Assembly: GCA_021108075.1 (NCBI GenBank)
Contig: JAIORP010000068.1
Span: 10,594-74,593 of the forward strand
From: Candidatus Omnitrophota bacterium
Lineage (GTDB): Bacteria; Omnitrophota; Gorgyraeia; Zapsychrales; Zapsychraceae
DNA length: 64,000 nt
Direction of reading: 5' to 3'
Shown here: one piece after another, positions 40,150 through 58,956 of the stretch
Numbering within the stretch: the first letter of the stretch is position 1
How the letters are laid out: every line of letters starts with the position of its first letter
The notes under the pieces: model-generated
What the model saw: the letters and a program-made list of their open reading frames with translations, nothing else
Databases searched by the model: none
Told to the model about the DNA's origin: nothing
Program-made: the position numbers and the translations under genes

Positions 40150-43100
40150 GTGCGCGCAAAGAAACCGAACCGTTGTTTTGCTTTTTTAATGATCCTGGCT
40201 TTCGGGGTCAATGGCCTCATGCCGTATGCCTACGCGCGAACACCGCTCAGCTTACCTGAACCCGGGGTGATGGTTTCGACCAGTCCGGCGTTTGTGCCGG
40301 TCTTAATCCGGGGCATGACCCTCCATCCCAAAGACCCGTTCCGCCTGGATTTTATTATGGATAGCGGGAATACCGGCCTAGAAAATGACGCGATGAAAGA
40401 AGAGTCACAAAAACTGATCAAATATTTTCTCGCCTCAATGACAATCCCGCAAAACCATTTATGGGTCAACCTTTCGCCTTATGAAGGCGATAAAATCATT
40501 CCACCCTCTTTGGGCCGGACCATGCTGGGCCGTGACCTGCTGGCTCAGGATTATCTCCTGAAACAATTAACCGCGACGCTGATGTACCCGGAAGAAGGAT
40601 TGGGCCAGGAATTTTGGGAAAGGATTTACCGCCAGGCAAAGGAGAAATTCGGAACAACCGACCTGCCGGTGAACACGTTTAACAAGGTTTGGATTTTGCC
40701 GCAGAGCGCGGATGTCTATGAGCATGGCCGGACGGTTTATATTGTGGACAGCCGACTGAAGGTCATGCTGGACAGCGATTACCAGGCCATGATGACAGGC
40801 CATGAGACAATTAAAAATGACGCGATGATGGAATTAGGGGAAACGATGATCCGTGAGGTTATTCTTCCCGAGATTGAAAGAGAAGTGAATGAAGGCAAGA
40901 ATTTCGCGCCCTTACGGCAGATTTACCATTCCTTGATTTTAGCGAAGTGGTATAAAGAAACGATCAAGGAAAGCATCCTGTCTCTGTCTTACGTGGACCA
41001 GCATAAAGTGAACGGCATTGAATGGAACGACCCGGCGTTTAAGGACCGGATCTATGCCCGATATATGCGGGCGTATCAAAAAGGTGTTTTTAATTATATC
41101 AAAGAAGATTATGACCGCTTAAGCCAGGAATTGATCCCCCGCAAATATTTTTCCGGCGGTTTTCAGGACCGGGCCATCGCCTTCAACCGGCCGCGGATTG
41201 CCAGAGAAGATATCAAACCCGTCGGTGATTATGCCATGTTGTCTGTGTCTTTGGACCAGGTGCCCTTGATTACCGTCAGGCAGGCGGGCTTGACAGGGGG
41301 GTATAAAGTCTCAGGGGCCATAGAACTGGATGAGCAAAAACAAATGCTTTCGTTTGAGGGACTGCGCGATGAGAAGTCTGTTTCTGAAAGGGTCGAACTG
41401 CTCATTCAAAAACGCTTGACAAAAAGAGACGTGCTGGACAAAATCAGCCGTTACGCCGGGCATGAAATGATTGACGCGATGATCGCCTGGTTTATGGATG
41501 AGTCGACCATGAACGATATTGTTATTCTTCAACCGAACGCCCTGGGTGTTCACACGGTTTTTGACGTGCGCGTGCTGGCTGTTTCAGAAAATTTTGAAGA
41601 CGAAGGTCTTGTTTTTCTGCATGAAATCGGCCTGGCCATGGGACAAACCGCGGATTTAAACACGGTCCTGGAGGTCGTTGATGATAAAACCACAACACAT
41701 CCGCTCAAATTATCACCCGATAAAATTGTTCAGGACTATCTCGAGGATAAAGCGTGGTACGACCGGCATGTGCAGGTGACAGACAAGCAGGGCGTGAAAC
41801 TGCACTATGCTTTGCGGGCATTGTTCCGTGAACAGTTTTTTCTGGACGATATGGACCTGACGCACCGGATCAAAGTGGCTTTTGAATTTGCTGATGAGAA
41901 GTTGCGCGCGGATGGCGAAGATGTGGACCAGGAAAAACTTTTACAGGAATTAACGGATAAATACAATCGAATCAGCGCGGCCAAATGGGGAGAGAATCAA
42001 AGACAATCCTCGTGGTTTTTAAGGCTGCGGGATGCTAAAGAACGGGTTCTCGCGGCAAGAGACATTTCCTCCTCGCGGGTCGTTGATGAGATCCTCAGTT
42101 TTTATCTCAAGGCCACAGATCCTCAAGAGCCGGTTGAGCGCTATGAACCTTTTAATGCCTTTATCTCGACGACGTTTCAAGGGCGGAAACGGGAAGTGCT
42201 GGTGCCTGTTGTTAAGGAATTATATGGGATGATCATGTATGACAGCGTCTATGTCGACCAGAGAGTCCTATTAATATCGTTGATGTCAAATATTATGGCG
42301 GGTATATTTGAACTGGACCAGTCCATCGTGTCTGGGTTTGAAGTGCTTCTCTTGCGGGATATCCGGCGGTTTGTTTCCGATGAGGTTTTTGTCGCGCCCC
42401 ATCAAGTTAAGGGTATTGATCATTTAGAACGGTATTTTAAAATTGTGCCCGGAAAAGAGTCGTTTCGGACAGTCGTTCAAAAGGCGGCCTTTAGATTGCT
42501 GGGACGACAGCCGTCTGTATTGAGCGTGCCGCAACCGAGGTTGTATTTCCGTGAAGATTTTTTTAAAAAAGTCAGGGAGCAAAGAGATGTGGCTATAAAA
42601 AAACACTTGATCCGGGCGCATAAACAGGCGCATTTGTTTAGAAACGCTATTCGGTCTTTGAGCAACAGTCTGGTCGCGCGTGAGCGGGTCGGCACCCGGC
42701 GGCGCAAATTTACGCTCAGGGAAAACGCGGGTCTGCACATGGATGGATTGTTGCGTCAATTTCAGGAGACGAAAGACGCGGGGAAAAAGGTGTTTTTGGC
42801 AGAGCTTTTATTCTCGTGGTCGGGTTCAGGGCATGAATTTTGGAACAAAGGTAATGCCGGGACCTATCTGGAAGACCTGATGAAATTATTGCCTCAAACA
42901 AAAACAGTCATGCAGAAAAGATCTCTCTTGCAGCAGGCCTTAGGGTTGCCGGTGATGACGATGGAACGGTCCTTGCGGCAGCGCTTTGTCGACTTTGTGT
43001 CCGGGGAACTGGCCGGATTGTTTTCTAAGGTGACGGAATTGGGCGTCGACATTGACCAGGATTTTCAGGACCTGGACGAACGTTATCCGGATGGTTATGA

Positions 43101-44934
43101 TCCTTTAAAAGATAAAGGGCTGGATGATAAGGTTTATGAGCAGCACAATTTGATGGTTGACATTCATCTGCGGATGTGGATATTGACAAAACTGGCGTTA
43201 GAGGGCATGAAGAGCCCGGACACGTCCTCAATCGGTCATGGCATCATACAAAATTTATGGGAGAGCGTTAATAACAGGCCATGGGACAAGAATATCAAAT
43301 CGATGATGATGACACATTTGGAGCCGTTTATTGTTCAAGGCGGATTTGTTTCCGATCGAAGCTTCGCGTCCGTGGTTCGTCCGTCGGATGAATTTTTTTC
43401 TGAGTTAAAGCGTGCCGGGTATCTGAATTGGAATGGGATGATCACGAATCAATTTGTGCGCTTAAAAAGTTCAGCGGAAATGGACCTGCCCGAAAAATAC
43501 CGGGATTTGAAAGAGAGCATTTATCAGGTATTTCAAGAGGCCTTAGACCGGTCAAATCCCGCTGTTGATTCTGCGTTCGCGGAATTGAAATCCCGGATCG
43601 ACCCGGGGCTGGTGAACACGGTGGAACGCGTTGTTTACGGCCGGGCGGAAGAATTTTCGGACGCCATTGTTTCTATTCTGGAGCAAAATGTCCTCAATGA
43701 TAATGTGACTTTTTTTATTTTAATGCGTCATAGTATGGACGAGCAATTGCTCGAAAGAATCGTTTTTAATGAGAATATCCGGATCGAAACCCGGCTGTAT
43801 GCCGCTTCCTGGCTTTTTCCGTCGATGACAACCGGGCGGGCCGCGCGATTGGTTGAGAGCCTCGCGGATGAAACAGAAGCGTTCATCCGCCGGACGATCA
43901 GAGATAATAACCGGGTCCGGTCTTTATTTGATAATGAGCTTTTACAGGATGAAGAAATCAAGGTTTACATGTTAGGCATGCTGATTGACACGCGGCGGCA
44001 TTTAACCCCGATGTCGATGAAGGCTTTTATCTCCATCTCCCGACGGATCCGTTCGGCCGAGGCCTTCGCGTATTTAAACAACGCGAACGCTTATTTCACG
44101 TTCGGGGGGAAGATTTTAGCCGGAACAACAGAACCGGCGGCATTGTTTTATGAAATTCTGAGCCACGAAATATTGCACGCCATTTTGCAAGAGGAACACG
44201 GTTACCGCGGCCAGACGCTCAAAGATTTCACGTTGGAGGAAATGTTGTCTGACATCCACAGTTATATGTTCGCCGACCGGATGGGCATCGAAGATAGTTA
44301 CCGCATTGACGCGGCCAAAATCGATAATTTTTTCAAGGCCGTTAAAGGGAATGATTATTTTACGGTAGAGAGCCATGAGGGCGCGCGGGCCCAGCTGAAA
44401 ATTTTGATAGAACGCCTGGAGGAACTCGGGATCAGTCTACATTGGCAGACGCTGTTAAGGATCGGTATCGCGATGATCCGGGATCCTCTGGTGCGGGAGC
44501 GGTCTCTGGAAGAGACGGTCTCCATCTGGGTTAAGACCGCGTTTTTCGAGCGGCATGGTTTCGCCCGGGTCAAACACAATGAGTTTTATCAGCGTTTTTT
44601 TGATGCCCCGGCGAGCAGTGACGCCGATAAGGATAGAATAAAGATTCTGGACGGCGAGGGCGTTGATAGGGCATTGGACCAGGACAGGGCGATGCTTCCG
44701 GGCGAGGAAGAGGTCGGAGGGATAGACCTGCAGGGCATTGACGTGAACCGTCAGGGCGAGGGGTTTGAGATTCAATTTGATCCGGCATCATTCCGGCAAA
44801 ACGGGGGTCAGGGCATCAACGGGCTTACGCCTGTCATTATCAATGTCACGCCCATTCAGAATATCCTGCCGCTGCTCGGCCTGGGGTCGGACAATGTGTC
44901 TGGATCGCTGGAGCTTTCGCAAAGCAGGGATTAG
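40150..44934 (+). CDS. giant signal-peptide protein, paralog of 36672 (shared N-cap and C-tail), core contains an HExxH motif
   Basis: GTG start after AGGA. Signal peptide ...AYARTP. N-cap similar to 36672 (LIKYFLA, WVNLSPYE, GRDLLAQDY, PVNTFNKVWI). HEILH near aa 1340. C-tail is similar. Confidence 0.85.
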   Translation: MRAKKPNRCFAFLMILAFGVNGLMPYAYARTPLSLPEPGVMVSTSPAFVPVLIRGMTLHPKDPFRLDFIMDSGNTGLENDAMKEESQKLIKYFLASMTIPQNHLWVNLSPYEGDKIIPPSLGRTMLGRDLLAQDYLLKQLTATLMYPEEGLGQEFWERIYRQAKEKFGTTDLPVNTFNKVWILPQSADVYEHGRTVYIVDSRLKVMLDSDYQAMMTGHETIKNDAMMELGETMIREVILPEIEREVNEGKNFAPLRQIYHSLILAKWYKETIKESILSLSYVDQHKVNGIEWNDPAFKDRIYARYMRAYQKGVFNYIKEDYDRLSQELIPRKYFSGGFQDRAIAFNRPRIAREDIKPVGDYAMLSVSLDQVPLITVRQAGLTGGYKVSGAIELDEQKQMLSFEGLRDEKSVSERVELLIQKRLTKRDVLDKISRYAGHEMIDAMIAWFMDESTMNDIVILQPNALGVHTVFDVRVLAVSENFEDEGLVFLHEIGLAMGQTADLNTVLEVVDDKTTTHPLKLSPDKIVQDYLEDKAWYDRHVQVTDKQGVKLHYALRALFREQFFLDDMDLTHRIKVAFEFADEKLRADGEDVDQEKLLQELTDKYNRISAAKWGENQRQSSWFLRLRDAKERVLAARDISSSRVVDEILSFYLKATDPQEPVERYEPFNAFISTTFQGRKREVLVPVVKELYGMIMYDSVYVDQRVLLISLMSNIMAGIFELDQSIVSGFEVLLLRDIRRFVSDEVFVAPHQVKGIDHLERYFKIVPGKESFRTVVQKAAFRLLGRQPSVLSVPQPRLYFREDFFKKVREQRDVAIKKHLIRAHKQAHLFRNAIRSLSNSLVARERVGTRRRKFTLRENAGLHMDGLLRQFQETKDAGKKVFLAELLFSWSGSGHEFWNKGNAGTYLEDLMKLLPQTKTVMQKRSLLQQALGLPVMTMERSLRQRFVDFVSGELAGLFSKVTELGVDIDQDFQDLDERYPDGYDPLKDKGLDDKVYEQHNLMVDIHLRMWILTKLALEGMKSPDTSSIGHGIIQNLWESVNNRPWDKNIKSMMMTHLEPFIVQGGFVSDRSFASVVRPSDEFFSELKRAGYLNWNGMITNQFVRLKSSAEMDLPEKYRDLKESIYQVFQEALDRSNPAVDSAFAELKSRIDPGLVNTVERVVYGRAEEFSDAIVSILEQNVLNDNVTFFILMRHSMDEQLLERIVFNENIRIETRLYAASWLFPSMTTGRAARLVESLADETEAFIRRTIRDNNRVRSLFDNELLQDEEIKVYMLGMLIDTRRHLTPMSMKAFISISRRIRSAEAFAYLNNANAYFTFGGKILAGTTEPAALFYEILSHEILHAILQEEHGYRGQTLKDFTLEEMLSDIHSYMFADRMGIEDSYRIDAAKIDNFFKAVKGNDYFTVESHEGARAQLKILIERLEELGISLHWQTLLRIGIAMIRDPLVRERSLEETVSIWVKTAFFERHGFARVKHNEFYQRFFDAPASSDADKDRIKILDGEGVDRALDQDRAMLPGEEEVGGIDLQGIDVNRQGEGFEIQFDPASFRQNGGQGINGLTPVIINVTPIQNILPLLGLGSDNVSGSLELSQSRD

Positions 44935-45163: not shown

Positions 45164-45242
45164 ATACAACCTTGAGCGATAGTAGCGTGCCTGTGATCGC
45201 TTCAGGACATTGTCAGAAAAAATATTGGTAAGAAATAAATTT

Positions 45243-45317
45243 GGGGTTGTAGTTCAGCCTGGTTAGAACGCCTGCCTGTCACGCAGGAGGTCGCGAGTTC
45301 GAATCTCGTCAACCCCG
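45243..45317 (+). tRNA. tRNA-Asp (anticodon GTC)
   Basis: Cloverleaf with acceptor GGGGTTG/CAACCCC. Anticodon loop CTGTCAC. T-loop TTCGAAT. CCA not encoded. Confidence 0.95.
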
Positions 45318-45323
45318 TTTTTT

Positions 45324-45357
45324 TAAAAGCCCAAATTAATAATTTGGGCTTTTTTGT
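45324..45357. terminator. bidirectional intrinsic terminator after tRNA-Asp
   Basis: aaaGCCCAAATTaataAATTTGGGCtttttt flanked by A- and T-runs. Confidence 0.7.
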
Positions 45358-45653
45358 CGACGATAACCCGCTCCTTAATTTTTGCACTTAGGATTACTTT
45401 CAAGCTTTCTGCTGTGCCCTCAATTACCACATTTTGCTACATTTTACCCTTCCAAATGGCACCAAAATGGCACCACTTTTTTCAATCCCTTCTTAGCGCC
45501 TAAAATAAGCATCAAATGTCAAAATATAGATCCCCATTATAATGCTAGCTAGGTTTTGGTTGGTGCTAAATCTTGTCATCTATGCAGATAAACTAATATG
45601 GCTAGATATTCAATAAACTGACTTTTTGGGATACCTTGCGACGAGTCAAGTCA

Positions 45654-45682
45654 TTGACAATAATATGACTGAAGGATAGAAT
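45654..45682 (+). promoter_or_regulatory. consensus sigma70-like promoter (TTGACA-17 nt-TAGAAT) at right end of leader copy 1
   Basis: TTGACA 45654-45659. TAGAAT 45677-45682. 17-nt spacer. Confidence 0.6.
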
Positions 45683-45927
45683 GGTTGTATATTTTTTAGG
45701 GGGGAACCTATTTTATAAATGTCTATTTATGTCGGGAATGATATCCAGCCCCGCAGGATGAACTGCTTCAACGACTGTCCTGCGAATAGCTATTACCGAT
45801 AAAAAGCGACATTTTTTATCGGTTTATGCCATAAAAAATGTAAATTTTAAACGATGGAAATGAAATTAAACCAGCTATGTCCGGTTGATCCAGTAAACCG
45901 GACAGTCGTATATTAAATGTTATCTTC

Positions 45928-45996
45928 AAGTAAATGAAGAATGAGGCGTGAAGAAATTCCCATGTTTTGTTCGAAGCATCGTTGGTTACGGGAGAA
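45928..45996 (+). repeat. about 70-bp direct repeat flanking IS630 (left copy), contains mini-ORF MKNEA
   Basis: AAATGAAGAATGAGGCGTGAAGAAATTCCCATGTTTTGTTCGAAGCATCGTTGGTTACGGGAGAA matches the sequence at 47368-47436. Confidence 0.6.
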
Positions 45997-46108: not shown

Positions 46109-47260
46109 AATTTGCAATATAGCTTGACGAGAACATAACGAATCTATAAGCTGAATACAATGAACGCTATTAAAAGCTCGACGTATTCAACATATGAGGT
46201 TCGAGAGAGAGCCGTTAAAGCTGTGCTATTGGGGCAACAAAAGGTAGCTGTCGCTAAAGCATATCAGGTTGACTACTCTACACTGTTTCGTTGGTGCCAA
46301 CGTTATGAAGGCACTAAAAAATTTTCAGCATTAGCACGTCAGCCTGGTAGCGGACGTCCTAATCTTTTAGATATTCAAACACGAGAAAATTTTCTTAAAA
46401 TTATTACTCAGCCAGCCTCTGAATTTGGATATGAAACTGACTTCTGGACATGTCGCAGGTTAATGCAAATTACTGAACAACGATTAAAGATTAAGGTTTC
46501 TAAGCCAACAATGTGGCGGATATTACGCGATATAGGTTTAACTTACCAAAAACCTGAACGCCGATATTTTGAAACTAATGATAAACTACGAAAAAAATGG
46601 CTTCGTTATGAAGTCCCAAAGATTAAGCGTTCTGTAAAAAAATATCGAGCCATTCTCTATTTTCAGGATGAGTCACATATTTCTTTGACGACGGTATTAG
46701 GAAAGACATGGGCTCCAAAAGGTCAAACGCCAATGCAACGAGTTACTGGTAATCGCGGTGGTTTTGCGGCTATGTCAGCAATTAGCCAAGTTGGAAAATT
46801 AATTTTTCGACTTCATCAAAAACGCATTACTTCTGTAGAAGTTATTGATTTTCTTAAACAGATGCTTAAGCATCATAAATATCGAAATGTAGTAGTGGTC
46901 ATGGATCAAGCTAGACCACATGTATCAAAGAAAACACAAGCATTTATCAAAGAACAGAAAAGATTGCATGTTTTTTATTTGCCATCTCGTTCTCCGGATT
47001 TGAATCCAGATGAACAGGTTTGGAATCATTTGAAACATCAAGAACTCAAAGGCAATGCATCCAGAACAAAAAAAGAACTTAAAAATTTAACCAATAGGAA
47101 GTCCCGAAATCCAGAATTACTAAATGGTATTTTCTTTAGATCCTGCATGGCAAGCTTCTTAAACTAAGCAACCTGTAAATATTTCTCGTCGGATTCTTAA
47201 TAGCGTTCTCTATTTTCAACGTCTTTTTAATTTCTCCTCCGTCGAGGCATATTGCAGATT
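46109..47260 (+). mobile_element. IS630-family insertion sequence (about 1.15 kb) with imperfect terminal inverted repeats
   Basis: Left TTTGCAATATAGCTTGACGAG. Right, as reverse complement, ATCTGCAATATGCCTCGACGGAG. Encloses the transposase ORF. Confidence 0.75.
46160..47167 (+). CDS. IS630-family (Tc1/mariner-like DDE) transposase
   Basis: N-terminal HTH region and DDE core (QDESHISL, MDQARPH, PSRSPDLNPDEQVW). Confidence 0.9.
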   Translation: MNAIKSSTYSTYEVRERAVKAVLLGQQKVAVAKAYQVDYSTLFRWCQRYEGTKKFSALARQPGSGRPNLLDIQTRENFLKIITQPASEFGYETDFWTCRRLMQITEQRLKIKVSKPTMWRILRDIGLTYQKPERRYFETNDKLRKKWLRYEVPKIKRSVKKYRAILYFQDESHISLTTVLGKTWAPKGQTPMQRVTGNRGGFAAMSAISQVGKLIFRLHQKRITSVEVIDFLKQMLKHHKYRNVVVVMDQARPHVSKKTQAFIKEQKRLHVFYLPSRSPDLNPDEQVWNHLKHQELKGNASRTKKELKNLTNRKSRNPELLNGIFFRSCMASFLN

Positions 47261-47367
47261 TTTTGAAATTATCTATAACACAATAAAAAGATAACAACTC
47301 GCTCCATCGGGCAGTCCTGCGCCACCTTCGTCGGCTTGTTCTGCCGATGAGCTCAAGGCGTTATATT

Positions 47368-47436
47368 CAAATAAATGAAAAATGGTGCGTGAAGAAATTC
47401 CCATATTTCGTTCGAAGCAATGTTGGTGGTGGGAGA
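47368..47436 (+). repeat. about 70-bp direct repeat flanking IS630 (right copy), contains mini-ORF MKNGA
   Basis: AAATGAAAAATGGTGCGTGAAGAAATTCCCATATTTCGTTCGAAGCAATGTTGGTGGTGGGAGAA. Confidence 0.6.
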
Positions 47437-47609
47437 ATGACGTTGTCTCAGAATCCTAACCCACCAAATGGACTAGTTTTGGGGGAAAGGTCATATTATG
47501 GATAGAAAAAGTTCTAAAAATAGAACAGGTTTTTGGGGATTTATTTTTTGCACAGGCATTGAACCAACGAGCGCAATATATAAACTTTTCCTTATAAAAA
47601 GGCATTTAC

Positions 47610-49661
47610 ATGTCGATTAATCCTCTTGGCAATATAAAGGCAGAAAATGATCATATAATGCTAGATGCAGCTTTTTATGATACTCAAGAATATAATTCCC
47701 TTATCGAAGACTCTGCTCATCGCATAGTCATCGGTAGACGTGGGACAGGAAAAAGTGCTTTATTTTATAGGCTTCAGAAGCATTGGGGTCATGAAAAAAA
47801 GTCGAATATAATAATTTTATCTCCAGGTGAAACTTATATTATCGGAATTCGTTTTTTTATTAATTGTTTTGGCGACAATCCTTCATATTTAAGAGCTGCT
47901 TGTAAAATTCTTTGGGAGTATGCAATTTTAAATGAAATTATTATAAATTTAGTGCAGGAATATAAGATAAAAAGTGAAACATTATTAAATGATTTGAACT
48001 CTTTCAGAAGTAACTGGGTTAAAGGAGGAAGCAATATTGCATCAAGATTATATTTTCTTTTACAAAATAAATTGAATATTAAAGAGCCAGCTGAAGTAAA
48101 AATAGCCAACTTAACGCGAACTTTAGAAATTAGTAGGGTAAGAAATTTAGTTGCGGACTCTTTTAAATTTTCAAGATATAAATATCGTATAATATCAGAT
48201 CGCTTAGATGAGGGATATGAACCGGATGATAGGGGTGTTGCAATAATCAGCGGATTACTAAGTGCTTTAGATATAGTAACATCATCAATAGAGAGTGTCT
48301 CGTCTGTTACATTTTTAAGAGATAATATTTTTCGTGCCGTGCAACGTTGTGATCCGGATTATTCGAGAAATATCGAAGGTGACATTTTGCGAATACATTG
48401 GGATGAATATCATTTGTTTAATATGATATGTAACCGTATAAGGAAGTCTTTTAAGATATCTCGTGAGCAGAATCTTGTAACCTGGAATAAGGTTACAGCA
48501 AAAGGTGTTACTGGTAAAGAAGGATTTAGAAAATGTCTTCGACAAACATTATATCGTCCTCGTGATTTGTTAGTGCTATTAAATAATGCATTTAACTCCG
48601 CATTGTCTCATAAAAGGAATGAAATAGTTGACGAGGATATTGAATTATCAGCAAAAGACATATCATGTTCACGACTAGATGATCTCAAAAAAGAATACAA
48701 ATCTGTATTACCAGGTTTGGAAGAAATTATTAAGATATTTTCCGGAGGAAGTCCAAAATTTATAGTTTTAGAAGCTAATAAGTTAATGCAGTCTTTGTTT
48801 GATTTGGATGATGTTAATTCTCTAGCTAGACAAACATTAGCAATTATGCAATCACCTTCAGAAGTCTTGAGGATGCTTTTTAGTATCGGGTTTATTGGAA
48901 TTTTAAATAAGGATTCATCTTGTTACGTCTACTGTCATGACGGAAAAGAACCGGATGTCTCAATAGATGAAAAAGCAAATATATTAATACATCCCTGTTA
49001 TTGGATAGCATTGAATTTGCATAATGTCGATTTAGAAGAAGAAATTCGTGATGAGATCCATGATGAATATGATATTGAAGTATGTTCTGAAACTCCTGAG
49101 ATACGTAGTAAAAAAATAGGTCAATTGATTTCAGAATTGAGTTTAATAGACGAAGGAAAAGAACACGCTTCAATGTTTGAGGATTGGTGTTTAAAGGCCA
49201 TACGGATTATTTTTGCTAAAGGTATTGTTAATGTTGAACTTCATCCTAATAAAAATTTAACGCAAAGAAGGGATGTTGTAGGTCGAAATACTGGTGAAAC
49301 GAATGCGTGGAGAAGGATTCTAAATGATTTTAAAGTAAGGCAGGTTATATTTGAAATTAAGAATTATTCGAAAGACCTAAGCGGAGATGAGTATAGGCAA
49401 ATGCTATCATATCTTACTAATGGTTATGGAAAGCTAGGTTTTATAGTCAAGAGAGGAAGTGATGAAACTTTGAGGAAAGGCAAAGAACTGAGGTGGGCCA
49501 AAGAGATCTATGATAAGCATGACAAACGTATTGTTGTTAAATTAACAGACAGTTTTATAGTGCGTTGTCTTTCAAAATTAAGAAATCCTCAGAAACATGA
49601 TGCTCCAGATAAACAACTAAGTTCTCTTTTAGATAATTATCAACGGAGATATCTTAGCTGA
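47610..49661 (+). CDS. P-loop NTPase fused to C-terminal PD-(D/E)xK (restriction-endonuclease-like) domain; candidate single-gene defense protein
   Basis: Walker A VIGRRGTGKSA near the N-terminus. The C-terminal 150 aa have a D...(E-x-K) pattern (RRDVVG ... IFEIKNYSK). Cargo of cassette 1. Confidence 0.7.
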   Translation: MSINPLGNIKAENDHIMLDAAFYDTQEYNSLIEDSAHRIVIGRRGTGKSALFYRLQKHWGHEKKSNIIILSPGETYIIGIRFFINCFGDNPSYLRAACKILWEYAILNEIIINLVQEYKIKSETLLNDLNSFRSNWVKGGSNIASRLYFLLQNKLNIKEPAEVKIANLTRTLEISRVRNLVADSFKFSRYKYRIISDRLDEGYEPDDRGVAIISGLLSALDIVTSSIESVSSVTFLRDNIFRAVQRCDPDYSRNIEGDILRIHWDEYHLFNMICNRIRKSFKISREQNLVTWNKVTAKGVTGKEGFRKCLRQTLYRPRDLLVLLNNAFNSALSHKRNEIVDEDIELSAKDISCSRLDDLKKEYKSVLPGLEEIIKIFSGGSPKFIVLEANKLMQSLFDLDDVNSLARQTLAIMQSPSEVLRMLFSIGFIGILNKDSSCYVYCHDGKEPDVSIDEKANILIHPCYWIALNLHNVDLEEEIRDEIHDEYDIEVCSETPEIRSKKIGQLISELSLIDEGKEHASMFEDWCLKAIRIIFAKGIVNVELHPNKNLTQRRDVVGRNTGETNAWRRILNDFKVRQVIFEIKNYSKDLSGDEYRQMLSYLTNGYGKLGFIVKRGSDETLRKGKELRWAKEIYDKHDKRIVVKLTDSFIVRCLSKLRNPQKHDAPDKQLSSLLDNYQRRYLS

Positions 49662-49727: not shown

Positions 49728-49880
49728 GTGACCTGCCCCAACTAGTTGCTCCATTAATTGTGGGAGACCGATGGTTGATGGAACTATCCTAGGTTTCATA
49801 TAGATTTTATTTTAGGACAGGATCATTAAAATCCCCCTAATATGTTAATAAACAGGTTCTAAACTTGTCTAACCATCCCC
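49728..49880 (+). repeat. cassette trailer repeat, copy 1 (about 150 bp) ending in CCATCCCC
   Basis: GTGACCTGCCCCAACTAGTTGCTCC...TTCTAAACTTGTCTAACCATCCCC. Repeated at 51770-51922. Confidence 0.85.
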
Positions 49881-49889
49881 GCCATTTAA

Positions 49890-49924
49890 CCCGAGTTCGT
49901 TTAACGACGAGCTCGGGTTTTTTG
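49890..49924 (+). terminator. intrinsic terminator at start of leader copy 2
   Basis: CCCGAGTTCG-loop-CGAGCTCGGG followed by T7. Confidence 0.7.
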
Positions 49925-50220
49925 TCGACGATAACCCTCTCCTTAAATTTCGCATTTAGGATTACTTTCAAACTTTCTGCTGTGCCCTGAATTACTACAT
50001 CTTGCTACATTTTACCCTTCCAAATGGAACCAAAATGGCACCGCTTTTTTAATCCCTTCTTATCGTCCAAAATCAGCATCAAATATCAAAATATGGATCA
50101 CCATTACAATGCTAGCTAGGTTTTGGTTGGTGGTAAATTTTGTCATCAGTGCGTATAAACTAATATGGCTTGATATTCAATTAACTGACTTTTTGGGGCA
50201 CCTTGCGATGAGTCAAGTCA

Positions 50221-50249
50221 TTGACATAATTTAGGGGGGAGATTAGAAT
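50221..50249 (+). promoter_or_regulatory. consensus sigma70-like promoter (TTGACA-17-TAGAAT), leader copy 2
   Basis: TTGACA 50221-50226. TAGAAT 50244-50249. Confidence 0.6.
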
Positions 50250-50303: not shown

Positions 50304-51635
50304 ATGCCGGATGTTGACGGTGTATATCTATACTGTCAGATACCATTTACAGGGGGAAGTATGAGTGAATCGATGACAATGAAGATGCATGACGTTTGTG
50401 AATCCCTTTTTTTACATGATTTGATGCGCCTCTCGACGCATTTCACCAATACCATTGACTGGGCGCGCTTTGGCATCCTCTTGGCGCAGTTCCAAGACCA
50501 GTTTGCCGGTATATCTCAAGCCCTTTACGAGTTCCTGGAGCAGGAAGAGAAAGAAGAGTTCTTGAAATGGTTTCTGCTTAAATGGGGGGAGATCAATATC
50601 TTGCCCCAGAGCGAGATTGATGAATATGACCGTAAATACGCCAGTTATGATCATTATCGCTGGGGCAAACGTAAAATCAATGGCATTGAAACGATCGTGG
50701 TCGATCTTCAGGAACAGTACGGTTTTGACTTCGCCCTTGACCGGGACTATAAAACCGTTGCTGATGGGGCCTGGCTTTTGTGTGATTTCCTGCATGATCA
50801 ATATTCTTTTAAAAAGACACATGTCCGTGAAAAAGATGTCATTATCGATGCCGGGGCTTATTTAGGGGAGTCGGCTTTATTTTTTGCACATCAATTGCGC
50901 GGGCAGTGCACGGTGCATTCCTTTGAAATTTCTCCCCCGAACTATCAAACCTTATTGGATAACCTGGCGATCAACGGACTAAAAAATATTCATCCCAACC
51001 GCCTGGCATTATCCGATAAGAGCGGGGAACAATTCGTGTTCACGCATGACCGGGGTAAATCTTCGGTCGACAGGAAAGTCGGCGGGACCAGCGATATGTG
51101 TACCGTTGAGACGGTTACCCTGGACGATTATGTTGCCCGGCACACATTAGAGCGTGTGGATTTCATTAAAATGGATATCGAGGGGGCTGAGATGGCGACC
51201 TTACGCGGGGCAGTTCAGACCATAAAGCAATTCAAACCACGGCTCGCAATCAGCATCTACCATTTGCCGGAGGACACGGTGTCCATCCCCCGGATTATTA
51301 AAGAACTGGTGCCTGAGTATCATTTCCATTTTAACTGGTATGCCAAAAGAAAGGGATCGGACGCGATCCTCTATGCCTCTATCGACGAGCAGCCGAAAGA
51401 AATGAAGATGAAAAGAGTGCCGGTTTTTGACCATAAGCTTTTTAATGAAGTTATTTACCGCTCCCTGTTTGAGATGGATGATCTGAAAGCCCAGCTGAAA
51501 GAAAAGCATGAAAAAAAGTGCCAGGAACTCGAGCAACGCATCGAGACGATCCATAATTCAAAAGTGTATGGACTGGTCCGGTGGTATTGGCGGACCATCT
51601 CGGCGGCAAAAAAATTGTTCAAGAAAAATTCGTGA
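50304..51635 (+). CDS. FkbM-family SAM-dependent methyltransferase with C-terminal coiled-coil extension
   Basis: VIIDAGAYLGESALFFAH and FIKMDIEGAE blocks. Alternative start ATG 50361 after AGGGGGAAG. Confidence 0.75.
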   Translation: MPDVDGVYLYCQIPFTGGSMSESMTMKMHDVCESLFLHDLMRLSTHFTNTIDWARFGILLAQFQDQFAGISQALYEFLEQEEKEEFLKWFLLKWGEINILPQSEIDEYDRKYASYDHYRWGKRKINGIETIVVDLQEQYGFDFALDRDYKTVADGAWLLCDFLHDQYSFKKTHVREKDVIIDAGAYLGESALFFAHQLRGQCTVHSFEISPPNYQTLLDNLAINGLKNIHPNRLALSDKSGEQFVFTHDRGKSSVDRKVGGTSDMCTVETVTLDDYVARHTLERVDFIKMDIEGAEMATLRGAVQTIKQFKPRLAISIYHLPEDTVSIPRIIKELVPEYHFHFNWYAKRKGSDAILYASIDEQPKEMKMKRVPVFDHKLFNEVIYRSLFEMDDLKAQLKEKHEKKCQELEQRIETIHNSKVYGLVRWYWRTISAAKKLFKKNS

Positions 51636-51769: not shown

Positions 51770-51922
51770 GTGACCTGCCCCAACTAGTTGCTCCAGAATT
51801 TGTGAGAGACCGATGGTTGATGGAACTATCCTAGGTTTCATATAGATTTTATTTTGGGACAGGATTATTAAAATCCCCCTAATATGTTAATAAACAGGTT
51901 CTAAACTTGTCTAGCCATCCCC
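51770..51922 (+). repeat. cassette trailer repeat, copy 2, ending in CCATCCCC|G
   Basis: Near-identical to 49728-49880. Followed by a tRNA-3'-like remnant and a copy of the post-tRNA terminator (51923-51965). Confidence 0.85.
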
Positions 51923-52034
51923 GTTTTTTTAAAAGCCCAAATTATTCATTTGGGCTTTTTTTTAGGGGGAACCCAAGCAAAATGGCAAAGCCATTCTTGC
52001 CCGGGTGTGTCAAAATATCCTATTTTGACTGCCC

Positions 52035-52464
52035 CGCCATTTAACCCGAGTTCGTTTAACGACGAGCTCGGGCTTTTTGTCGACGACAACCCTCTCCTTT
52101 AAATTCTCATTTAGGATTACTTTCAAACTTTCTGCTGTGCCATCAATGACTACATTTTGCTACATTTTACCCTTCCAAATGGCACCAAAATGGCACCTCT
52201 TTTTTCAATTTCTTCTTATCGCCTAAAATCAGCATCAAATGTCAAAATATAGATCGCCATTACAATGTTAGCCAGGTTTTGGTTAGTGGTAAATCTTGTC
52301 ATCAGTGCGTATAAACTAATATGGCTTGATATTCAATCAACTGACTTTTTGGGACACCCTGCGACGAGTCAAGTCATTGACATAATTTAGATGAGAGACT
52401 AGAATGTTTTTATGTCTTTTTTTGGGGGGGGGGATAACATTGGATATCAATATCCCGTGATATA
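52035..52464 (+). repeat. cassette leader repeat, copy 3
   Basis: Terminator 52045-52078, conserved core, then the promoter. G10 tract at about 52427-52436. Confidence 0.85.
52377..52405 (+). promoter_or_regulatory. consensus sigma70-like promoter (TTGACA-17-TAGAAT), leader copy 3
   Basis: TTGACA 52377-52382. TAGAAT 52400-52405. Confidence 0.6.
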
Positions 52465-52655: not shown

Positions 52656-53669
52656 ATGGCTGAAGATAAAAATCAAAAGAAAGATGAAGTTGTAAAAACC
52701 GGAAATCCGCTAGTGTTTATAAGTCATGACACTAGAGATGCTAAACTCGCCGAAGCCTTTAGCGGACTTCTAAAAAGTGTTAGTGCTGGTGTTTTGAAAT
52801 CGTTCAGAACATCAGATAGAAAAGGGAATCAAGGAATTGAATACGGAGTCGAATGGTATCCCGAAATCATAAAGAATATTCAAAACGCTTCTGACGTTGT
52901 TTGCCTTCTTACAGAGAGAAGTATAAATAGGCCTTGGATTCTATTTGAAGCAGGAATGGCAAAAGGGAAGCTTGAAACTCCTATTTTAGGTGTAGCGTTA
53001 GGCATATCTTTGAAAGACGCATCATCTGGTCCGTTTGCTCAATTTCAGAATTGTGGAGATGATGAAGAATCTTTAACTAAATTAGTCTTTCAATTGGTAG
53101 ATCGTATCCCCAATTCAGAACCAGACGAAGAAACGATAAAGTTTCAGGTTGGCAAATTCAAAGAATCTATTGCAAAAATATTAAAAGCCAAGAACAAAGA
53201 CGCAAAACCTGAATCTTCAGAATTATCAAGTAGAGATAATTCATCGGCAAAACTCTTTGAAGAAATTAAGGTTATGTTTCAAGATCTACCGTCAAGAATT
53301 GAAAGTAATATGAATCCTGAATTACGTAGCAGAAAAAGACGTCGCTTTCATCCAATGATGATGGAAGAAATGATGCATATGAGTAAAAACAGACATATTG
53401 GAATAATGATGGCGCTTAGTCTTTTCAAAGAACCGATGCCTTGGCTGTATGAAATTGGCATGGAAACCATTAGGACGATTAAAACAGGAAAAACGAAAGC
53501 AGAAAAGAAAAGGGCATTTTCAGAGTTCCAAGAAATAGTTGAAATGTCCACTCGTCATCCAATGATGCGTGAATTTTTTATGGATTCAAAAGATGACTAT
53601 ATGCTTTTTAGAGAATTGCCTGAGGTGCTATCAGAAAGTTTTTATAGATTAATGATTGAAGAAAAATAA
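52656..53669 (+). CDS. TIR-domain protein with Met/His-rich C-terminal domain of unknown function
   Basis: N-terminal VFISHDTRDAKLAEAF...VVCLLTERSINRPWILFEAG fits the bacterial TIR (TIR_2-like) pattern. The C-terminal 200 aa have no recognisable family. Low GC. Confidence 0.65.
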   Translation: MAEDKNQKKDEVVKTGNPLVFISHDTRDAKLAEAFSGLLKSVSAGVLKSFRTSDRKGNQGIEYGVEWYPEIIKNIQNASDVVCLLTERSINRPWILFEAGMAKGKLETPILGVALGISLKDASSGPFAQFQNCGDDEESLTKLVFQLVDRIPNSEPDEETIKFQVGKFKESIAKILKAKNKDAKPESSELSSRDNSSAKLFEEIKVMFQDLPSRIESNMNPELRSRKRRRFHPMMMEEMMHMSKNRHIGIMMALSLFKEPMPWLYEIGMETIRTIKTGKTKAEKKRAFSEFQEIVEMSTRHPMMREFFMDSKDDYMLFRELPEVLSESFYRLMIEEK

Positions 53670-58003: not shown

Positions 58004-58138
58004 CTATAGGGGAGATTTTAGGGACATGCCTGAATGTTGAAATGTGATGTAGCAAAAATATTACAAACATTGCCCAACAAGACAATCCAGCGGGCGTCTT
58101 ATAGCCGCCGCTGATTTTGGCGTTATGAGATACAAATA

Positions 58139-58546
58139 ATGTTGAAAATTTATAATAGATTTGTCCCCATGGGCATCATCATTTGGTGTGTCCTTTTTGT
58201 AATTATAAATTTGTTCGTAATAATAAATTCAATTTATCAAGCATTTCGAGCAAGTGTGCCCCACTTTCTGTTTGCGCTCATTCCTGTAGTTTATGTAATT
58301 GTTTTGCTGGGATTTATGATTTTACAAGTATTGTTGGGTGGTAATGATTGCAGAAAATACTCTATTTATTGGTGCTTTTTTTGTTTGCTGGGAATTTCTG
58401 GAAGGTTTTGGGCGGGGCCACCATCGGATTTACTGGAATTAAGTATAACGAATGTATTAAAATTCTTGCCTATCATTGTATTTAATGTTAGTTTTATTAT
58501 TTATTTTTTGTTGCCAAGTATAAAAAAGTATTTTAGAAATCATTAA
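58139..58546 (+). CDS. small hypothetical membrane protein (4 predicted TM helices)
   Basis: Hydrophobic ORF in an AT-rich region. Confidence 0.4.
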   Translation: MLKIYNRFVPMGIIIWCVLFVIINLFVIINSIYQAFRASVPHFLFALIPVVYVIVLLGFMILQVLLGGNDCRKYSIYWCFFCLLGISGRFWAGPPSDLLELSITNVLKFLPIIVFNVSFIIYFLLPSIKKYFRNH

Positions 58547-58617
58547 TCTCATAACCAGCAGATTGAGCGGGCGTCAGGACGCCGCTCATCTGCCAGCGTT
58601 ATGAGAAATTAAAAATT

Positions 58618-58956
58618 ATGAATCACCGTATTCAAATACTTCGTGACGTATACAAATTTTACAATGAGAAAGGCCCTGGCAACTATGGGCTTGCACACAC
58701 ATTTCCAAGCTTTACAACGGGAGATGAAAGATATTTGGCAGCTCTCAACCAACTTCTACGAGAAAAACTGATCCTCGGTGTTTCTATGCCGGACAATAGT
58801 CATGAAAAAGATCAAATGGCGATTGGGCTTAACCCAGATCGTCTTAACAATATCAGAAAGGAATTGTCTCCATGGCACATGGATCCTAAGATAGTTATAC
58901 CTATTATTGTTGGAATGCTAGGCCTCATATGGGCAGTTGTCAGCAAGTTGTTTTAA
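58618..58956 (+). CDS. small hypothetical protein with C-terminal TM anchor
   Basis: ORF with a C-terminal hydrophobic helix (IVIPIIVGMLGLIWAVV). Confidence 0.4.
   Translation: MNHRIQILRDVYKFYNEKGPGNYGLAHTFPSFTTGDERYLAALNQLLREKLILGVSMPDNSHEKDQMAIGLNPDRLNNIRKELSPWHMDPKIVIPIIVGMLGLIWAVVSKLF

Follow-up and report, generated by a model that had tools for sequence, protein, structure and literature searches.

An Omnitrophota gene joining a Cdc6/Orc1-like ATPase to a FokI-like nuclease domain: a plausible single-gene immune nuclease

The mosaic region beside tRNA-Asp in the stretch of Omnitrophota DNA analysed here (the window, 64,000 nucleotides in full) holds an ORF of 683 aa that raises a simple question: is an ATPase-nuclease encoded by a single gene, in the vicinity of known defence genes, itself part of the immune repertoire of its carrier, and if so, is it new? 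The original prediction, made from the sequence before any search, had proposed it as a candidate new defence gene. The ORF exists exactly within the boundaries that had been given, its start agrees with homolog alignments, which begin at the same N-terminus, and its product is identical to NCBI entry MCD4779821.1 ('ATP-binding protein', from a Candidatus Omnitrophica MAG). Its GC content is 0.326, versus 0.413 for the window. Coordinates of the gene, its domains and the surrounding elements are collected in Table 1.

Table 1. Features of the gene, its product and the surrounding locus, in positions of the window.
Feature	Position	Strand	Basis or remark
tRNA-Asp(GTC)	45242..45318	+	tRNA match; anchors the variable region
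Leader copy 1 (~340-nt element)	45355..45700	+	Repeat comparison; ends in near-consensus promoter
Promoter of leader copy 1, TTGACA-17-TAGAAT	45654-45682	+	Near-consensus
IS630-family insertion between leader copy 1 and the ORF	46152..47218	+	Transposase and inverted repeats
IS630 terminal inverted repeats	46152-46183 and 47187-47218		Imperfect
DDE_3 transposase of the IS630 element	46160-47167	+	Domain match
ORF, complete, 683 aa, ATG start	47610..49661	+	Existence and extent confirmed
AAA+ ATPase core (residues ~36-365), including the helical insertion and the lid	47715..48704	+	Motifs, profiles, structure model, fold matches
Walker A GRRGTGKSA, residues 42-50	47733-47756 (G42-S49)	+	Sequence and homolog alignment
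Winged-helix domain, residues 383-460	48756..48989	+	Model; Cdc6/Orc1 alignments span ATPase and winged helix
Flexible linker, residues 481-495	49050..49094	+	Low confidence, pLDDT <50
FokI-like PD-(D/E)xK nuclease domain, residues 496-683	49095..49658	+	Motifs, profiles, fold matches
Leader copy 2	~49880-50230		Repeat of the ~340-nt element
Terminator-like hairpin and T-run	49888..49919	+	227 nt past the stop codon; 5' edge of leader copy 2
Leader copy 3	~52040-52400		Repeat of the ~340-nt element

A catalogued family of Cdc6/Orc1-like ATPases

The family to which the protein belongs is large, already catalogued and functionally uncharacterised. NCBIfam model NF047389 ('P-loop ATPase, Sll1717 family') matches it with 260.2 bits (E 4e-77, cutoff 75 bits), aligning residues 6-468 to positions 1-454 of 454, and the cutoff is passed by all 44 homologs of the alignment from which our residue conservation figures are taken. 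The RefSeq name of the homologs from E. coli, Klebsiella, Pseudomonas and Vibrio is the name of this family; other labels are phrog_13260 and the Pfam ORC-CDC6-like entry PF24389. The NCBIfam model spans only the ATPase and winged-helix module, leaving the FokI-like nuclease domain of the subfamily outside, and its name carries no function (as of June 2026, the description is still 'P-loop ATPase' only). More than 1,100 homologs were found, with at least 66% of the protein covered in the best 120 of these, and the ATPase module alone is represented by approximately 4,300 clusters at 50% identity. The original prediction had recognised no named defence family, and it is the case that PADLOC-DB v2.0 yields no full-length match to any system protein; however, a curated member of NF047389 and phrog_13260 with thousands of relatives is no orphan. 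In the literature on the Sll1717 family and PF24389, and on FokI-like or Cdc6 anti-phage proteins, we found no experiment on any ATPase-nuclease member; the Gifsy-1 HepS paper proved unrelated to this family.

The Walker A motif, which had been recognised as canonical and placed within the first 50 residues, is there indeed, with G42, R43, R44, G45, G47, K48 and S49 invariant in the 44 homologs. Also invariant or nearly so are a Walker B-like D197-x-L-D200-E201 and the motif T313-L-Y-R-P-R-D319, and the invariant R237-D-N239 and Y315-R-P-R-D319 resemble the sensor motifs of such ATPase cores, in which the roles of individual residues as sensors or arginine finger are putative. In the AF2 model (pLDDT 85.6), what had been described as a long helical middle region is instead the remainder of the AAA+ domain with its helical insertion (~74-184), the lid (~300-365) and the winged helix (383-460), the hairpin region of which contains an invariant H443-D444-G445. 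The features expected of an initiator-clade AAA+ ATPase are thus combined in the predicted structure, from the two Walker motifs and the sensor motifs to the lid and the helical insertion that follows strand 2, and the top fold matches of the module are Cdc6, Orc1, MuB, TnsC and DnaA, with STAND structures ranking lower than the initiator AAA+ proteins. A confident assignment to a housekeeping family such as the replication initiators, which would have spoken against a defence gene, was not obtained: the fold is Cdc6/Orc1-like, but model TIGR02928 (orc1/cdc6 initiators, cutoff 181 bits) gives no match to the 683-aa protein at E <=1 and only 15 bits for the E. coli homolog. A PDB profile search with the N-terminal module returned generic P-loop matches only, and an RNase P protein proposed as a PDB relative by the whole-protein search and the C-domain profile was a weak and spurious hit (E ~0.02). 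Because the PDB searches gave only generic P-loop or spurious matches, no family member has a solved structure.

A FokI-like nuclease domain

The C-terminal domain carries the motifs RRD555VVG and FE582IK584NY. Its candidate catalytic residues, E524, D555 and E582-x-K584 (D555 to K584 at 49272-49361), as well as Q597xxxY601, are invariant in the 44 sequences. In the model, D555 opens the strand 554-560, E582 and K584 lie in the strand 578-584, and E524 is on the preceding helix; the alpha-beta-beta-beta-alpha-beta core fold of the PD-(D/E)xK superfamily is present, with the acidic residues and lysine on strands 2 and 3 conserved. The fusion of an ATPase to a PD-(D/E)xK nuclease, as originally proposed from the D...E-x-K arrangement, is therefore borne out in architecture, motifs and fold. 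A lack of nuclease geometry, which was to count against the proposal, is not indicated: the domain keeps its candidate catalytic residues and its fold. Sequence identity to the Type IIS cleavage domains of FokI and BspD6I is only about 10%, and unlike those enzymes the 683-aa protein has no Type IIS recognition domain or cognate methyltransferase, the domain being tethered to an AAA+ ATPase.

Among representative relatives, 86 have the ATPase module complete, and 77 of these keep the nuclease domain; some relatives gain PNP_UDP_1, CHAT, nucleotide cyclase or metallophosphatase domains that match the PADLOC models for CBASS effectors, chat and PycC. An effector swap, in which other effectors replace the nuclease, was considered and rejected because the long variants retain the nuclease and gain a third domain.

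A single-gene locus and its relatives on mobile elements

Cassette boundaries in the region are direct repeats of ~340 nt with promoters, and not imperfect palindromes of the attC type; with regard to an integron, no integrase was found among ten ORFs scanned (40150-62757). The leader element had no matches in public genome contigs (two patterns, exact or degenerate) or metagenome contigs (one pattern), and a reading of it as a structured RNA was discarded because its fold z-score is +1.05 and Rfam finds the tRNA only. A TIR protein and a Hachiman system with both its components (PADLOC: HamA 324 bits, HamB 1386 bits) are encoded downstream of the gene, so that the defence neighbourhood of the original prediction is real, but the adjoining cassette encodes an FkbM-type methyltransferase, which is not a known defence gene (GC 0.462). 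Pairing of the two genes as a restriction-modification or MADS-like system was rejected, because a separate leader and promoter, set off by a terminator, serve the methyltransferase, which differs in GC content from the ORF and is absent beside homologs, and because the mad2 and mad8 matches are domain-level only. No credible hidden partner ORF lies downstream of the gene.

Expression from the leader promoter, as first suggested, is less direct than it appeared. The promoter is conserved, but its -10 element lies 1,928 nt from the ATG, with the IS630 transposase gene in between (the boundaries of the IS are approximate because its terminal inverted repeats are imperfect), and the interval 47220-47610 contains no promoter-like site on the + strand that reaches 9 of 12 matches. 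Transcription from leader 1 is possible, and would have to proceed by read-through across IS630; read-through, or an outward promoter borne by the IS, could operate because the IS is on the same strand and no + strand terminator-like site was found between the promoter and the ORF.

Homologs always stand alone, in agreement with the single-gene cargo proposed for this locus, and in the contexts examined no partner is conserved beside them, whether antitoxin or immunity gene, transposase, TnsB-like gene, origin-associated gene or DNA methyltransferase. Their distribution is sporadic and largely that of mobile elements. The E. coli homolog (689 aa) is a moron of Rac-like prophages, located between the replication and Q/nin modules and present in 41 of 5,426 complete genomes (<1%); Klebsiella homologs reside on phage-plasmids of ~110 kb, and others in IS26-flanked regions of conjugative AMR plasmids. 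Full-length copies occur in 213 plasmid records, and 21 viral loci of IMG/VR contain homologs. The Pseudomonas homolog belongs to an nrdB-adjacent island together with pyocin S and its immunity gene, HNH, Bro-N and PIN TA genes. Several other homologs are chromosomal singleton insertions among metabolic genes, with neither defence neighbours nor recognisable mobile elements around them.

A plausible immune nuclease and its alternatives

A link to validated immunity is provided by DS-41 ('AAA2' of DefensePredictor, WP_033812887.1, 502 aa), a single-gene anti-phage protein of E. coli that Table S6 of PMC13092281 gives as defensive. All 44 family members tested match the DS-41 model (NCBIfam NF053860, an equivalog of 448 positions, cutoff 370 bits), with a best E of 1.5e-15, and a 557-aa member of the Sll1717 family aligns to its positions 11-383. 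The 683-aa protein itself reaches 37.4 bits, with only residues 3-65 aligned, as a homolog and not a member. The two proteins share a homologous P-loop ATPase module and the single-gene format, but DS-41 is ~180 residues shorter. PADLOC matches of the 683-aa protein are domain-level, to PDC-M36A (residues 550-618, E 2e-7) and, more weakly, to RTasPDDEXK; across the family, PDC-M36A matches the nuclease domain in 44 of 44 members and PDC-M28C the ATPase core in 42 of 44, with mad8 also matched, all of these being candidate systems or partial matches.

Taken together, the architecture, the conservation, the defence context, the mobile distribution, the homology to DS-41 and the effector domains added in relatives lead us to favour a reading of the gene product as a self-contained immune nuclease acting against phages or other invading DNA, which we consider plausible and the better part of the probability. 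The N-terminal ATPase of Cdc6/Orc1, MuB or TnsC type, together with the winged helix, would serve as an ATP-dependent switch and form oligomers or filaments, most probably on DNA or upon a phage-derived trigger. Assembly could bring together the flexibly tethered FokI-like domains, which are expected to need pairing in order to cut both strands, as FokI cleavage domains do. Cleavage of DNA would then destroy the invader directly or kill the infected cell by abortive infection. The closest known systems include single-protein sensors that combine an NTPase with a nuclease, such as Hna, Upx, OLD and Avs4, the last of which has an Mrr-like nuclease, but no Avs or NLR model matches the 683-aa protein and its structure model lacks the repeat-type sensor domain expected of an Avs or STAND protein. 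A more specific version, in which the ORC/Cdc6-like ATPase and winged helix mimic an initiator, recognising the replication origins of an incoming phage or plasmid, or its origin-like or initiator-remodelled DNA, polymerising with ATP and having pairs of FokI-like domains cut at or near the origin, is decidedly improbable as it stands, but if true it would represent a new sensing principle (of origins or replication intermediates) in a widespread single-gene system found also on clinical resistance plasmids.

Mobile elements could also keep the gene for their own benefit, its nuclease serving exclusion, competition or addiction, for example by cutting rival replicons or cells from which the element has been lost. 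The strong association with prophages, with phage-plasmids and with plasmid modules bounded by IS26, and the pyocin and toxin-antitoxin conflict genes adjoining the Pseudomonas homolog, agree with such a selfish role, but no antitoxin or immunity partner is conserved in any context examined and chromosomal singletons also occur outside recognisable mobile elements, so that we regard it as unlikely; in practice the line between it and defence is blurred, since a defence gene carried by a prophage serves both purposes. An ATP-dependent restriction-like enzyme, sensing a feature of the DNA (modified base, sequence or structure) directly, as Type IV or Type ISP enzymes do, without infection trigger or cell death, is similarly unlikely: Pfam detects no recognisable reader domain for modified DNA (SRA, YTH or similar), and, with regard to a Type IIS or ISP restriction-modification system, which would include a cognate DNA methyltransferase, the neighbouring FkbM methyltransferase belongs to a separate cassette of different composition and is missing from the homolog contexts.

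The nearest folds are those of replication initiators and of MuB and TnsC, which regulate transposition; together with the IS630 directly upstream, they also recall an accessory of replication, transposition or repair, in which a target selector or an initiator resembling ORC/Cdc6, MuB or TnsC, coupled to a TnsA-like nuclease, would serve the carrier elements. Unlike archaeal Cdc6/Orc1, MuB and TnsC, however, the protein is sporadic, borne by mobile elements, fused to a nuclease and devoid of transposition or replication partners; the IS630 is absent from the other contexts, and the failure of the orc1/cdc6 model, the rarity of the gene in E. coli and the immune-type effector domains of relatives make this the least probable of the readings. 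Only a little less remote is the idea that the gene, irrespective of what its family does in other genomes, is silent cargo in this Omnitrophota genome, uncoupled from its leader promoter by IS630 and without present function. The long interval to the promoter, occupied by the IS, and the lack of a promoter-like site next to the ORF would be compatible with it, but the ORF is intact and retains all family-invariant residues, and the IS shares the strand of the ORF, with no terminator-like site found on that strand on the way.

As a candidate new defence gene, the immune nuclease favoured here is thus a plausible single-gene ATPase-nuclease whose ATPase is homologous to that of DS-41, although its family had already been catalogued and its role in defence is one that we infer. 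If validated, it would extend the known repertoire by a widespread single-gene immune system whose sensor or switch is an initiator-clade AAA+ ATPase, in contrast to the STAND, ABC and SMC-type NTPases of Avs, OLD/Gabija and Lamassu, and whose effector is a FokI-type domain, probably dependent on pairing. Because close homologs are found in Rac-like prophages of E. coli, phage-plasmids of Klebsiella and conjugative resistance plasmids, the immunity hypothesis is directly testable in standard hosts. In clinical Enterobacteriaceae, the gene may influence phage therapy and the traffic of plasmids. The link would also place DS-41, validated but mechanistically undescribed, in a larger family. The two parts of Table S6 of PMC13092281 that cover validated proteins and non-defensive DefensePredictor hits contain no entry of the size of this family. 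Its candidate HJRS (WP_250112039.1, 674 aa), with remote similarity to Upx and Mrr, was not defensive in the assay, and the 698-aa plasmid variant of our family carries accession numbers different from that of HJRS.

Domain architecture of the fusion protein

The open reading frame agrees exactly with the description in the original prediction, a P-loop ATPase fused to a PD-(D/E)xK nuclease, and its product and the MAG protein deposited as MCD4779821.1 ('ATP-binding protein', Candidatus Omnitrophica) are identical. In independent assemblies the gene order of the locus is the same, and short contigs end at the repeated leaders. Across an alignment of 44 homologs, Walker A (G42-R-R-G-T-G-K48-S49), a Walker B-like D197-x-L-D200-E201, R237-D-N239, T313-L-Y-R-P-R-D319 and, towards the C terminus, E524, D555, E582-x-K584 and Q597-x-x-x-Y601 are invariant or nearly so; the RRDVVG and FEIKNY stretches originally singled out as nuclease motifs are the D555 and E582-x-K584 positions. 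The reading frame and this conservation therefore confirm the observation, which is far beyond chance.

Residues 6-468 match the NCBIfam profile NF047389 ('P-loop ATPase, Sll1717 family') end to end (260 bits, cutoff 75) and also phrog_13260, a phage family without assigned function (E 6e-71), and the single Pfam match, N-terminal and sub-threshold, is to ORC-CDC6-like. The AlphaFold2 prediction derived from the family alignment has high confidence (pLDDT 85.6, pTM 0.74). From comparison with solved structures, among which ORC subunits, DnaA and RFC appear as lower-ranked resemblances, the modelled ATPase module is assigned to the AAA+ proteins of the initiator/loader clade, which depend on ATP for their assembly on DNA. 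An invariant C-H-D-G in the winged-helix hairpin is reminiscent of 'MHD', by which STAND/NLR proteins sense nucleotides.

The C-terminal domain most resembles the FokI cleavage domain (score 11.3), N.BspD6I (11.1) and the small subunit of R.BspD6I (10.8), followed by LlaBIII (9.3), EcoT38I (9.1), HindIII (9.0) and AspBHI (8.1); the immune nucleases Hna, Shedu, Cap4, Can2, NucC, Avs4, Upx, LmuA and HamA score 5-7. According to the model and the alignment, E524 falls in the first helix of the core and D555 where strand 2 begins; E582 and K584 belong to strand 3, and Q597 and Y601 to the next helix, so that the invariant residues are predicted to be placed as a PD-(D/E)xK site requires. By sequence the domain is only weakly recognisable, through Pfam PDDEXK_3 in 15 of 21 members (best E 6.5e-4) and through the PADLOC candidate PDC-M36A in 44/44.

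Distribution of the family and its links to immunity

A word-indexed search returned more than 1,100 homologs. The best 120 listed, mostly full length (about 685-700 aa, identity 44-57%), each align to no less than 66% of the query and represent Omnitrophota, Pseudomonas, Vibrio, Klebsiella, E. coli, Salmonella, Pectobacterium, Pantoea and Methylophaga. When the ATPase profile was used for an exhaustive HMM search, it matched 4,272 representative clusters at E ≤1e-3 and 363 at ≤1e-30. Among the 86 top representatives whose ATPase module is complete, 77 also carry the nuclease domain, and the pair is thus the conserved unit of the subfamily. No conserved partner gene was found in the contexts examined, where homologs always stand alone.

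The E. coli homolog is a moron of Rac-like lambdoid prophages, between DnaC-like/DUF1627 replication genes and a DUF1367/Q-antiterminator module, with near-identical copies, always single, in 41 of 5,426 complete genomes. Klebsiella homologs reside on phage-plasmids of about 110 kb, and conjugative resistance plasmids carry a 698-aa variant in IS26-flanked mosaic regions, adjoining a resolvase; full-length copies occur in 213 plasmid records, and relatives are encoded at 21 IMG/VR viral loci. The Pseudomonas homolog lies 3' of nrdB in an island with Bro-N, HNH, pyocin S and immunity, and PIN toxin-antitoxin (TA) genes, that of a second Omnitrophota genome adjoins a PIN/RHH TA pair, a DUF1016 nuclease and an ORF6N gene, and elsewhere the homolog is a singleton insertion amid metabolic genes. 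Numerous large plasmids of Klebsiella and E. coli (matches H17-H27) hold only the last ~145 codons of a family member, mostly unannotated and about 50% identical to query residues 540-684 (e.g., NZ_CP089961.1 84964-85398); these pieces look like nuclease-domain remnants, or possibly free-standing nuclease-domain genes.

No PADLOC system gave a full-length match to the product or to family members. The model of the anti-phage protein DS-41 (NF053860) is matched by 44/44 aligned members (best E 1.5e-15), and a 557-aa Sll1717-family protein from an E. coli IncF plasmid covers its positions 11-383; the two ATPase modules are therefore homologous. DS-41 is listed as a validated 502-aa single-gene system in Table S6 of the DefensePredictor study (PMC13092281). 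The product itself is not a DS-41 member, matching over residues 3-65 only (37 bits, cutoff 370). Longer relatives retain ATPase and nuclease and gain a third domain: PNP_UDP_1 in four representatives, N- or C-terminal, and in others CHAT, nucleotide cyclase or metallophosphatase. These additions, which match the chat and PycC models of PADLOC as well as CBASS-effector and candidate models, come from the immune effector repertoire.

Proposed role and alternatives

In the best supported model, the AAA+/winged-helix module would bind ATP and oligomerise or form filaments, with DNA as the likeliest platform given the behaviour of its structural relatives, or would do so after a phage cue. Assembly would pair the flexibly tethered FokI-like domains, which could then cut DNA, leading to direct restriction or abortive infection. 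The analysis establishes the domain architecture and folds, the conserved motifs, the distribution and the homology to DS-41. We infer ligand, oligomerisation, substrate and phenotype, and hold the model less firmly than a defence function as such, which is moderately probable. The predicted defence neighbourhood is real, with a TIR protein and HamA/HamB in the leader-3 cassette.

A family carried by plasmids and prophages might serve these mobile elements through selfish exclusion or addiction, which we consider unlikely, and an equally modest chance attaches to a restriction-like enzyme that acts independently of any trigger. An accessory role in replication or transposition is very improbable; judged by family membership, the product is not a replication initiator, and TIGR02928 has no match in it (the E. 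coli homolog reaches 15 bits, cutoff 181). Compatible with the other alternatives, and scarcely more probable than the accessory role, is that the gene is silent in this genome because of an IS insertion. The leader promoter from which it was proposed to be expressed exists as leader 1, but lies 1,928 nt from the ATG with an IS630 element between. Transcription could run from leader 1 through IS630 into the gene, because the element shares the strand of the gene and a plus-strand terminator-like site was not found between promoter and gene.

The defence reading is plausible rather than surprising to a specialist, the candidate being a variation on the familiar NTPase-plus-nuclease theme, distinguished by its initiator-clade AAA+ switch and FokI-type effector. 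The family is already catalogued in NCBIfam and PHROGs, without an attached function, and we found no experimental study of it in the literature; its value lies in how broad it is, in its occurrence in E. coli prophages and on clinical plasmids, and in the ease with which it can be tested.

The leader array and other features of the window

Features of the window and of the 683-aa protein
Feature	Position	Details
Gene under study	47610-49661 (+)	683 aa
Helical insertion, long	residues about 74-184	in P-loop alpha/beta core; AlphaFold2 model
Lid	residues about 300-365	AlphaFold2 model
Winged helix	residues 383-460	AlphaFold2 model
C-H-D-G	residues 442-445 (48933-48944)	
Disordered linker	residues 481-495	AlphaFold2 model
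C-terminal compact domain		helix, three strands, helix, strand; AlphaFold2 model
1,594-aa ORF	40150-44934	directly upstream of tRNA-Asp
tRNA-Asp	45242-45318	leader array starts downstream
Leader 1	about 45355-45700 (array unit 45304-45700)	cargo: IS630, gene under study
78-nt direct repeat	45919-45996; 47360-47437	about 160-190 nt either side of IS630
Leader 2	about 49880-50230 (array unit 49728-50230)	cargo: FkbM-type methyltransferase
Methyltransferase	50304-51635	443 aa; cassette 2
Leader 3	about 52040-52400 (array unit 51770-52400)	cargo: TIR protein, HamA/HamB
Insert in leader copy 3	51910-51961	
TIR protein	52656-53669	directly upstream of Hachiman
Similar ~70-nt segments	58076-58146; 58553-58622	downstream of HamB; spacing 477 nt
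Small ORF	58139-58546	135 aa

The tRNA-anchored array comprises three ~340-nt leaders of about 90% identity, each ending with a near-consensus sigma-70 promoter (TTGACA-17-TAGAAT) and followed by different cargo. Sharp differences in GC among the cargoes (gene under study 0.326, methyltransferase 0.462, TIR gene 0.356, HamA/B about 0.50) indicate independent acquisition. Upstream of copies 2 and 3 lie a common ~150-nt segment (95% identical) and a terminator-like hairpin; the segment can be aligned, weakly, to the tRNA-Asp gene together with its 3' end (TCTAGCCATCCCCG vs TCTCGTCAACCCCG). The extra insert of copy 3 contains a second tRNA-Asp 3' end and terminator hairpin (original 45304-45355), 90% identical, which suggests repeated recombination at the tRNA locus. 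Within the leader, an invariant direct repeat (AAATGGCACC, twice) could be a regulator site. A structured RNA was not borne out (z +1.05), and exact and degenerate pattern scans did not find the leader in GTDB genomes or JGI metagenomes.

The 78-nt repeats flanking IS630 are 85% identical, too long and too diverged for a target-site duplication, and a short minus-strand ORF (MGISSR...) begins in each. The FkbM-family methyltransferase (Pfam Methyltransf_21, E 5e-22; weak, local PADLOC mad2 match, E 2.6e-6) is an unusual cargo for a slot with defence genes on both sides. The TIR protein matches PADLOC 'TIR-TM' (residues 60-308, E 3.5e-14) and ThsB-like TIR models. Directly 3' of each ~70-nt segment is a small ORF, the second called as a 112-aa gene in the matching assembly; the two have no Pfam or PADLOC match and may be tandem paralogous genes. 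Neither Pfam nor PADLOC gives a match at E ≤1e-3 for the 1,594-aa ORF, whose GC of 0.49 exceeds the window average. Over window positions 1-64000, 38 of the 40 ORFs of at least 120 aa are on the plus strand, the remaining two overlapping plus-strand genes, and GC skew is positive almost throughout, which fits a long co-oriented leading-strand stretch.
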